A stretch of 64,000 nt of DNA from Escherichia coli. Its GTDB lineage: Bacteria; Pseudomonadota; Gammaproteobacteria; Enterobacterales; Enterobacteriaceae. The translations under genes and the position numbers were made by a program. The notes under the pieces were generated by a model. That model was not told the origin of the DNA and did not search any database. It was given only the letters and a program-made list of their open reading frames with translations. Where the stretch lies: NCBI RefSeq assembly GCF_030384885.1, contig NZ_CP128613.1. The stretch is one strand, 5' to 3'. Of the stretch, positions 8,087-9,037 are shown piece after piece (the first letter of the stretch is position 1; every line of letters begins with the position of its first letter).

Positions 8087-9037
8087 GTGTATAAAACTGT
8101 ACATTCATACAGCAAAATGAGTTCTACTATGGCACTGGAAAAAGGAATTGCAGAGTTAGTCGAAGAGTTTATCGCTGCGGGTCGCCCCTCATCGCGTCAA
8201 CAAAGTATTGCGCAGCGCAGGGAGGGCTATATCGCCAGCGCTGTCCTTGCGGGTGAGACAGAAACGCGGGTAGATATTCAGACTATCGAACTTGAAGCGA
8301 TGACCTTACGAATAGTGTCGCCGCTGAATGCCCCTACATTACTCCCGACGATAATTTATTACTACGGTGGCTGTTTTGTTAGCGGCGGGTTCGCAACTCA
8401 CGACAACCAGCTGCGCCAGTTAGCCTATTACGGGCAATGTCGGGTTATTGCCGTCCAGTATCGGCTGGCACCGGAACATACTTTCCCCGCCGCCCATGAT
8501 GATGCGCAGCGAGGTGCAGAATTAGTCTGGCAACACGCCGAACGACTCGGCGTTGATAAACAACGGATAACTCTCGCCGGTGACAGTGCAGGTGGGCATC
8601 TGGCGCTGGTAACTGCTTTGCGATTAAAGCGTGCTGGCGAGTGGCAACCAGCACAACTCATCTTAATTTATCCTATGCTTGATGCGACTGCGCATTTCGA
8701 AAGCTACATACGCAATGGTCACGATTACATCATCACACGCGACACTTTACTGAGCGGCTTTGAGATGTACCTGCCAGGCATTGAACGCAGGCATCCTGAA
8801 GCCAGCCCTCTTTGGCGCGATGATTTCAATGGCTTGCCGCCTGTACATATCATTACCGCTGAATACGACCCACTTTGCGATGAAGGTGAAGCGTTGTATC
8901 ACCGCATGACAGAGCAAGGAGTGCAATGCACCTGCCAACGCTACCTTGGCGTTATCCACGGATTTTTTCAGTTAGGTGGTATCAGTGAGGCTGCGCGATC
9001 GGCGCTACGGGATGTGGCCTGGAGAGCGGGAAGGTAA
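8087..9037 (+). CDS. Alpha/beta-hydrolase, hormone-sensitive-lipase-family esterase (Aes-like)
   Basis: Oxyanion-hole region YYYGGCFVSGG, nucleophile elbow GDSAGG, C-terminal DPLCDEG and HGF segments. GTG start at 8087; alternative ATGs at 8117 and 8129. Confidence 0.8.
   Translation: MYKTVHSYSKMSSTMALEKGIAELVEEFIAAGRPSSRQQSIAQRREGYIASAVLAGETETRVDIQTIELEAMTLRIVSPLNAPTLLPTIIYYYGGCFVSGGFATHDNQLRQLAYYGQCRVIAVQYRLAPEHTFPAAHDDAQRGAELVWQHAERLGVDKQRITLAGDSAGGHLALVTALRLKRAGEWQPAQLILIYPMLDATAHFESYIRNGHDYIITRDTLLSGFEMYLPGIERRHPEASPLWRDDFNGLPPVHIITAEYDPLCDEGEALYHRMTEQGVQCTCQRYLGVIHGFFQLGGISEAARSALRDVAWRAGR

Follow-up and report, generated by a model that had tools for sequence, protein, structure and literature searches.

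Among the genes of Salmonella that respond to DNA damage, nlhH (STM14_4846 / STM4032, 'putative acetyl esterase') has been listed as an SOS gene, its expression being 15.1-fold higher with nalidixic acid (Merida-Floriano et al. 2021, PMC8072944). It carries one LexA box located 13 bp from the ATG with a heterology index (HI) of 7.63, and the divergently oriented toxin gene higB-2 was 8-fold up-regulated with nalidixic acid, with its box 184 bp from the ATG; a single SOS box was reported to serve both genes (PMC8072944). In a Salmonella dam mutant, in which SOS-regulon genes make up 18% of the up-regulated set, a 'putative acetyl esterase' that may be the same gene (STMUK_4015) was found approximately 3-fold up-regulated (PMC4213855). 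Here we describe the Escherichia coli member of this published kind, i.e. the counterpart of the Salmonella SOS esterase NlhH. It is encoded at positions 8129..9037 (+) of a stretch of 64,000 nucleotides from contig NZ_CP128613.1, in the following called the window. This window matches the chromosome of E. coli strain 2013C-4282 (NZ_CP027579.1) with 100% identity. The gene is situated in a variable stretch that is bounded by fdhE-yiiF-yiiE on one side and by fabY (yiiD)-dtd-yihY on the other.

The E. coli and Salmonella proteins show 75-77% amino acid identity, and both genes occupy the slot between fdhE and fabY with a LexA box 13-14 nt before the ATG. The gfp-fusion primers published for the Salmonella gene (PMC8072944) match the 3' end of the orthologue exactly in the loci L008 and L009, and the C-terminus encoded by these primers is that of the orthologue P0103, which verifies the orthology of the window esterase with nlhH. 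Moreover, the box of the Salmonella Newport locus lies exactly 184 nt from the toxin ATG, hence higB-2 corresponds to the toxin gene that is divergently oriented to the esterase. Such a divergent neighbour, consisting of a RelE-like toxin and a helix-turn-helix (HTH) antitoxin, is present in Newport-type and 14028-type Salmonella as in E. coli. The two enzymes fall into one clade with an HGGC-type oxyanion loop, but the first residue is His in Salmonella and Tyr79 in E. coli. Furthermore, Salmonella retains a downstream HigB/HigA pair that most E. coli genomes have lost, and SOS induction has been measured for the Salmonella gene only, while the E. coli gene is found in approximately 49% of the genomes. 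Taken together, we consider it highly probable that the window encodes a family IV esterase orthologous to NlhH, which is an old resident of the fdhE-fabY slot and most likely controlled by LexA, with the toxin-antitoxin (TA) genes as neighbours and the flanking repeats as the trace of a haplotype join. Since the SOS control of the Salmonella orthologue is already published (PMC8072944), this is no major surprise.

Family, active site and oxyanion loop of the esterase

The longest form of the open reading frame (ORF) extends from 8087 to 9037 (+) and would code for 316 amino acids from a GTG at 8087. A preliminary description of the locus took this form as the gene; the ORF proved to be real, but its start had been set 42 nt too far upstream. 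The N-terminus MALEKGI, which begins at ATG 8129, is common to all 13 aligned orthologues and to the RefSeq coding sequence WP_001353711.1, annotated as alpha/beta hydrolase. The extension 8087..8128 (+) is absent from all these 13 orthologues and overlaps the conserved promoter and operator, and GTG 8087 is located upstream of the conserved -10-like hexamer TATAAA (8090..8095, +). Hence, the esterase most likely starts at ATG 8129 and comprises 302 amino acids plus the stop codon, GTG 8087 being the longest possible start only. The extension is most likely not translated; it contains the -10 element and the LexA box as well as the 5' untranslated region.

The protein matched the Pfam family Abhydrolase_3 (PF07859) with E=1.8e-69 and 234.1 bits against a cut-off of 25, covering the profile positions 1-209 of 210. 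Sequence matches in the PDB include EH1AB1, Est8, LAE6, PestE and EST2 with E values down to 8e-51, and the GDSAGG motif, the Asp of a DPL stretch and the His of IHGFF align with the catalytic residues of solved family IV esterases. The nucleophile elbow G-D-S153-A-G-G is encoded at 8579..8596 (+), the catalytic Asp247 in the stretch YDPLCDEG at 8867..8869 (+) and the catalytic His277 in GVIHGFF at 8957..8959 (+). In an alignment of 60 sequences reaching down to 32% identity, the triad S153, D247 and H277 as well as G151 and G155 are invariant. An AlphaFold (AF2) model based on this alignment obtained a predicted local distance difference test (pLDDT) value of 96.7, displays N-terminal cap helices at residues 5-17 and 27-41, and was superimposed by Foldseek on Est8, LAE6 and EH1AB1 with template modelling (TM) scores of 0.92-0.95. 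Judged by the family profile, the solved homologues and the model, the ORF truly encodes a serine esterase of family IV (HSL-type, Abhydrolase_3); the initial assignment to the HSL carboxylesterases based on GDSAGG and Asp/His candidates, for which conservation of the triad had been proposed as a check, was thus confirmed.

The solved esterases EH1AB1 (6i8d), LAE6 (5jd4), Est8 (4ypv), PestE (2yh2) and EST2 (1evq) have the fold in common with the window esterase (TM 0.89-0.95), and likewise the GDSAGG elbow, the Ser-Asp-His triad and the N-terminal cap helices. However, they are only 32-36% identical to it in structural alignments and carry the canonical HGGG, where the window esterase has YGGC. 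The other cytoplasmic HSL-family esterase of E. coli, Aes (YbaC; PDB 4krx), is a distant paralogue (E=7e-29), and unlike Salmonella NlhH it is absent from published SOS gene lists. With the Aes profile (NF007547, PRK10162) the window protein scored 141.6 bits against a cut-off of 389, which marks the gene as a paralogue and not as Aes itself; it also stayed below the NCBIfam equivalog cut-offs for the LipP1 HSL (NF058653, 240.8 versus 350) and the chloramphenicol hydrolase (NF033149, 163.3 versus 500). The esterase, which reaches none of these equivalog cut-offs, represents an unnamed subfamily paralogous to Aes. The chloramphenicol hydrolase EstDL136 (NF033149; PDB 6aae), an example of an HSL-family enzyme able to inactivate a drug, is its second-best NCBIfam match (163 bits). 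However, this score is far under the cut-off of 500 and the superposition is poorer, with a root mean square deviation of about 10 A, hence neither score nor superposition provided evidence tying the window esterase to chloramphenicol.

No N-terminal signal peptide was seen in the esterase sequence. By analogy with the solved relatives, the protein would be a cytoplasmic serine carboxylesterase with Ser153 as nucleophile, activated by His277 and Asp247, and the oxyanion would be stabilised by the backbone amides of the (Y/H)GGC loop and of Ala154. Such an enzyme would be expected to hydrolyse carboxylic esters in the cytoplasm, probably preferring those with short chains.

The oxyanion-hole motif Y79-G-G-C82-F (8363..8377, +) was correctly read in the preliminary description as YGGCF in place of HGGG. 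Compared with the canonical family form HGGGX, the G-G core is retained, the third Gly is replaced by Cys throughout the clade, and the His is replaced by Tyr. All 114 cluster representatives from other genera show HGGCF, and YGGCF occurs only in the six clusters of E. coli. In the wider family, represented at 50% identity, HGGG was found 105 times and HGGC 11 times, the latter including the nearest relatives. Mutagenesis of the oxyanion loop caused a 15- to 140-fold loss in LipN, and the Gly-to-Ala exchange in LipW a loss of less than 4-fold (PMC10099132). By analogy with RmEstA (PMC10099132), the Phe following the loop would favour medium-length chains. The ratio of nonsynonymous to synonymous substitution rates (dN/dS) of the esterase amounts to 0.09-0.16 among E. 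coli alleles and to 0.03-0.12 between genera, i.e. the gene is under purifying selection by this measure. Therefore, the variant oxyanion motif is no mark of a dead gene, and the Tyr79 variant is probably active.

LexA box and promoter region of the esterase gene

The LexA operator of E. coli has the consensus TACTG(TA)5CAGTA. Its outer CTG and CAG represent the key bases (PMC9621596). Beside the -10 element of the esterase gene, the preliminary description had overlooked a LexA (SOS) box, AACTGTACATTCATACAGCA (8095..8114), which directly follows TATAAA and lies 14 nt before ATG 8129. Its core of the form CTGT-N8-ACAG, CTGTACATTCATACAG, spans the positions 8097-8112. A CTG-N10-CAG box is found 13-15 nt before the ATG in ten out of ten intact loci and also in the Salmonella Newport locus. 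When nine upstream regions were aligned, the box core as well as the TATAA of the -10-like hexamer turned out to be invariant, and the remaining intergenic region averaged 52% column identity. In an E. coli lineage (strain AHB2, L020) whose esterase has an internal deletion, the box has degenerated to CTTTGCATTCGTACAG; at 3440-3560 of this locus, directly downstream of yiiE, the resulting pseudogene joins about 12 codons of the N-terminus to about 25 of the C-terminus. This single case would fit with selection acting on the box only as long as the esterase is intact.

The position of the LexA operator next to the -10 element makes it most likely that the esterase is repressed by LexA and induced by DNA damage, as has been demonstrated experimentally for the Salmonella orthologue. 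In E. coli, LexA would bind beside the -10 element, where it would cover the probable start of transcription, and this block would be lifted when DNA is damaged.

Further upstream, another conserved element, TTTGCGAGGCGCTTTCCAGA (8021..8040), has an invariant core in the nine aligned upstream regions. It is a candidate for a regulator site, conceivably a sigma-54 promoter or a CRP site, or for a relic of an ancestral intergenic region between a ribbon-helix-helix (RHH) gene and the esterase. The 20-nt element takes the form TTTGCGAG(G/C)CG(C/T)TTTCCAGA, and related copies are found upstream of yiiF (5455-5499) and yiiE (5895-5939).

Several points weigh against the interpretation of the gene as a functional, LexA-controlled esterase. 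The motif CTGT-N8-ACAG occurs once in the 64-kb window, for which 0.74 occurrences are expected by chance, so the case is built on the position and conservation of the box. A scan of the region 7150-9250 for consensus promoters and terminators called no site and no -35/-10 pair, hence the esterase promoter is placed by conservation only. The literature found on STM4032/nlhH deals with Salmonella only, and no data on expression or LexA binding in E. coli were found in it. Approximately half of the E. coli genomes are without the esterase, which is hence dispensable. Finally, the near-invariant His of the HGG motif is Tyr in E. coli, and the AAGG stretch resembling a Shine-Dalgarno sequence in other genera is weakened or altered, so activity or expression could be reduced.

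The latter points could also indicate that the E. coli esterase is a decaying gene, catalytically compromised by the exchange of His to Tyr, weakly translated from a poor ribosome-binding site and heading for loss. The confinement of YGGCF to the E. coli clusters while 114 others keep HGGCF, the absence from around half of the genomes, the internal deletion in one lineage and the changed AAGG stretch are all in line with such a decay. However, the low dN/dS values among E. coli alleles, the maintenance of triad and LexA box, the 2636 genomes covering at least 80% of the esterase, the full-length frame annotated as intact in every one of the matches listed, and the tolerance of loop substitutions in some relatives, such as the cost of less than 4-fold in LipW (PMC10099132), make this explanation very improbable. 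An active esterase under LexA control therefore remains our preferred interpretation.

The fdhE-fabY slot, its toxin-antitoxin neighbours and the flanking repeats

The esterase is present at a coverage of at least 80% in 2636 of 5426 complete E. coli genomes, which agrees with its earlier description as an accessory carboxylesterase, and has been lost in the other half, including a BL21-derived strain and O157:H7. Orthologues with 75-83% identity occur in many Enterobacteriaceae, and the slot is shared in at least five genera and two further contigs. In every context that was read the gene neighbours fabY, and most loci have fdhE on its other side. This slot holds the orthologue in Salmonella, Citrobacter, Enterobacter, Leclercia and Pseudocitrobacter, and in Superficieibacter the gene adjoins fabY. 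The neighbours vary. Enterobacter hormaechei has neither a divergent upstream nor a downstream neighbour, and Leclercia has none upstream and an Ail/Lom outer-membrane protein gene downstream. One type of Salmonella and Citrobacter braakii carry a divergent RHH/PIN pair upstream and a HigB/HTH pair downstream, and the contig L017 has the RHH/PIN pair without a downstream neighbour. A divergent RelE-like/NadS pair is found upstream in Pseudocitrobacter, with a HigB/HTH pair downstream, and in Salmonella Newport (L019), with a HigB/HigA pair downstream. Superficieibacter retains only a NadS-like remnant upstream, in addition to a downstream HigB/HTH pair. At the fdhE-fabY slot, the esterase thus stays in place, and it is the TA modules that vary.

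Each genome has one place for the esterase, always beside fabY. A DNA and protein search revealed no genuine plasmid copy, the E. coli hits being records of 1-4.9 Mb, and the Salmonella Newport 'plasmid' record (L019) is a chromosomal fragment with unchanged gene order. Nor did the protein search reveal a genuine phage copy, since the close hits bear Salmonella strain names or correspond to an unannotated 4-kb record. The GC content of the esterase gene (0.49-0.53) resembles that of the core genome, whereas the neighbouring 637-codon gene has 0.35-0.42. By its sequence context, the esterase has long resided in the intergenic slot between fdhE and fabY in Enterobacteriaceae.

In the window, the TA pair and the esterase gene are flanked by two direct repeats of 98 nt each, which are 94% identical and specific to the esterase locus. 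Copy R1 (7220..7317, +) comprises the nadS 3' end and the 78 nt that follow it, and copy R2 (9037..9134, +) starts with the final base of the stop codon of the esterase gene and contains a decayed remnant of the nadS 3' end. An Rfam scan of 4000-12000 gave no match to the repeats or the esterase region. Two copies exist in only about 329 genomes compared with 2636 esterase-bearing ones, and esterase-only loci have one copy. R1 is identical at 98 of 98 positions to the single copy of esterase-only genomes such as L007, and downstream of the Pseudocitrobacter nadS the first 48 nt of R1 are conserved. The single copy of the esterase-less genomes L002 and L003 agrees with R2 at 92-93 of 98 positions but with R1 at 86-87 only, and the likeness of R2 to this haplotype includes the decayed nadS remnant. 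Since each repeat copy matches a different haplotype, the window is most simply read as a composite of two haplotypes.

Five arrangements were found in E. coli. Type (a) consists of repeat, nadS, toxin gene, esterase gene, a 55-nt spacer and fabY (L004, L005, L007); type (b) of repeat, 637-codon gene and fabY (L002, L003, also O157:H7); type (c), the window, has the TA pair and esterase as well as the 637-codon gene; type (d) keeps only a 5' remnant of the 637-codon gene (BL21-like genomes, L018); and type (e) has the esterase with internal deletion plus a downstream HigBA pair (L020). The BL21-derived strain examined has no esterase, and about 2000 genomes show the same esterase-less arrangement. 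R2 is joined at a TAACTCC microhomology directly on the esterase stop codon, and a hairpin that follows the esterase gene in type (a) loci, as it does in Salmonella and Pseudocitrobacter, is gone in the window. Hence, the repeats would stem from the joining of two alternative haplotypes, one with TA pair plus esterase and one with the 637-codon orphan gene, whereby the left part of type (a) may have been joined to the right part of type (b) via ordinary homology at one end and microhomology at the other.

In the preliminary description, the same repeats were regarded as the borders of a travelling unit. A mobile cassette, in which TA pair and esterase move together between genomes and are stabilised by the TA system, could explain the 98-nt direct repeat around a 1.8-kb segment, the occurrence of genomes with one repeat copy and no module (L002, L003), and the almost exact co-occurrence of esterase and TA pair in E. 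coli (2636 versus 2635 genomes). However, the segment between the repeats contains no ORF for an integrase, transposase or other recombinase, and the gene is positioned next to fabY in every genus examined, with a GC content like that of the core genome. Approximately 88% of the esterase-bearing genomes have a single repeat copy, a second copy being found in about 329 of 2636, and R1 and R2 match different haplotypes. In addition, Enterobacter and Leclercia have the esterase without TA genes, other Salmonella and Citrobacter have the RHH/PIN pair instead, and the 'plasmid' and 'phage' hits are mislabelled chromosomal records. The notion of a repeat-bounded travelling unit is thus largely refuted, and we give it hardly any credence compared with a resident gene at a haplotype join.

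The TA pair is oriented divergently to the esterase. A RelE/HigB-like toxin gene of 103 codons (7589..7900, -; 'RelE/ParE family toxin' of RefSeq in other strains) directly abuts the gene of a NadS-family HTH antitoxin of 96 amino acids (7298..7588, -), which scored 60.7 bits against the NCBIfam NadS cut-off of 60, matched Pfam HTH_3 and is named nadS in RefSeq. The pair shows the features of type II TA systems with the toxin-first order. In this order, in the small HTH antitoxin and in the palindromic operator candidate described below it resembles systems composed of a HigB2/RelE-like toxin and an HTH-XRE (NadS) antitoxin, of which the Salmonella pair was named SehCD in a retracted paper (PMC3868539). 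It differs from them by the weak Pfam RelE match of the toxin (E=0.016) and by its start codon ATA (7898-7900). The toxin frame is open and the next in-frame start is TTG 7810. The start codon is ATG in L004, L005 and L007 but ATA in the window and in strain S51, and no other complete genome shares the 60-nt stretch at the toxin start with at least 99% identity. Of 24 E. coli genomes sampled, about 9 had the ATA allele, and TATAAT just upstream of the toxin gene reads TACAGT in the window (7903-7908, -). The toxin is probably poorly translated or untranslated, while nadS is intact.

Upstream of the toxin gene lies the perfect palindrome GTACGTCA-T-TGACGTAC (7938..7954), which is conserved only in loci bearing nadS and may serve as the NadS operator. 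The intergenic region is modular, i.e. its toxin-proximal half with the palindrome tracks nadS, whereas the esterase-proximal half from about 8015 is conserved everywhere. Compared with E. coli, identities amount to 69% for the toxin, 87% for NadS and 77% for the esterase in Salmonella Newport, and to 59%, 85% and 82%, respectively, in Pseudocitrobacter, values that fit with joint vertical descent of the trio. The RelE-like/NadS operon would then be an old syntenic neighbour with its own operator and not a vehicle for mobility.

The close linkage of esterase and TA pair that was initially proposed is borne out by the counts of 2635 and 2636 among 5426 E. coli genomes and by the DNA damage induction of both the Salmonella orthologue and the divergent toxin gene with one reported SOS box (PMC8072944). 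One might therefore think of a functional three-gene unit, in which the esterase works with the TA operon as a DNA damage-responsive module, for example by modulating the toxin or by acting on a product of its activity. Such cooperation could be reflected in the conservation of the trio with similar divergence in E. coli, Salmonella Newport and Pseudocitrobacter, in its near-perfect co-occurrence in E. coli, and in the joint response of nlhH (15-fold) and higB-2 (8-fold) to nalidixic acid. But the esterase persists without the RelE-like/NadS pair in Enterobacter, Leclercia, Citrobacter and other Salmonella, the two intergenic halves form separate conservation modules, and the esterase is still intact in the window and in the sizeable share of E. 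coli with the ATA start of the toxin. The joint loss in E. coli is also explicable by single deletions spanning adjacent genes. On balance, we regard a functional unit as unlikely and favour the independent esterase with a TA neighbour.

Signs of further TA genes are present around the slot. YiiF (5128-5370, -) is 71-75% identical to the RHH protein whose gene immediately precedes a PIN-domain gene in Salmonella, Citrobacter and the contig L017; from this likeness, yiiF looks like an orphan antitoxin gene whose VapBC-like toxin has been lost. The gene yiiE (5587-5835, -) codes for a more distant paralogue of YiiF with approximately 44% identity. The palindrome GTTTTCA-N3-TGAAAAC is found twice upstream of the downstream higB in Salmonella (L008, 6942 and 6980) and Pseudocitrobacter (L014, 5932 and 5969), once between esterase gene and fabY in esterase-only E. 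coli (L005, 5903-5919), and also at position 3616 of L020. The single copy in esterase-only E. coli suggests a former downstream HigBA pair of which one operator-like hairpin was kept; the pair is still present in about 25 E. coli genomes (type L020).

The 637-codon ORF (9206-11119, -) is intact and AT-rich, and its homologues, grouped in eight clusters all annotated as 'hypothetical', are confined to Escherichia/Shigella. It gave no Pfam, NCBIfam or PDB match, and its AF2 model (pLDDT 41.7) was too poor for a fold search. In RefSeq it is divided, apparently by mis-annotation, between a 'transposase' and a pseudogene. In O157:H7 the gene itself is split, and of the gene in BL21-like genomes only a 5' stub is left. 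It contains the stretch CKSAKDRT, a CX5R(T) loop that presumably resembles the active site of inositol 4-phosphatases and SopB/IpgD. Three hypothetical genes without family match are located between yiiE and nadS, coding for 179 amino acids (6054-6593, +), 92 amino acids (6661-6939, -) and 70 amino acids (7001-7213, -), the last for an Arg-rich product with the Cys cluster CMCSCWMC; in the other E. coli loci compared, only fragments of the stretch 6054-7213 found matches. Downstream of fdhE, Rfam matches to the small RNA ES036 (CssrF; 5001-5043, -; 45.8 bits versus a gathering score of 37.6) and partially to naRNA4 (5047-5083, +) probably mark a REP-type repeat region.

Possible significance for the SOS response

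With a lower degree of likelihood, the esterase could be a DNA damage-induced detoxifier of an ester- or amide-containing genotoxin or antibiotic, comparable to EstDL136, or a working partner of the co-induced RelE-like toxin. We see only a small chance for this proposal. If it were true, the Cys of the clade and the Tyr of E. coli in the oxyanion loop would tune substrate choice or redox sensitivity, and the SOS regulon of Enterobacteriaceae would gain a small-molecule defence arm. Such an arm would have been unseen in K-12 studies, because K-12-like strains are without the esterase.

Irrespective of its substrate, the esterase is a family IV enzyme with an uncommon (Y/H)GGC oxyanion loop and thus of possible interest for enzymology. 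The locus also shows that a conserved gene can mimic a cassette when TA modules and an orphan gene are gained and lost in its surroundings. The classical list of E. coli SOS genes was built in K-12. For about half of natural E. coli, this list would probably gain one gene, which would contribute an enzymatic function without evident link to DNA repair.

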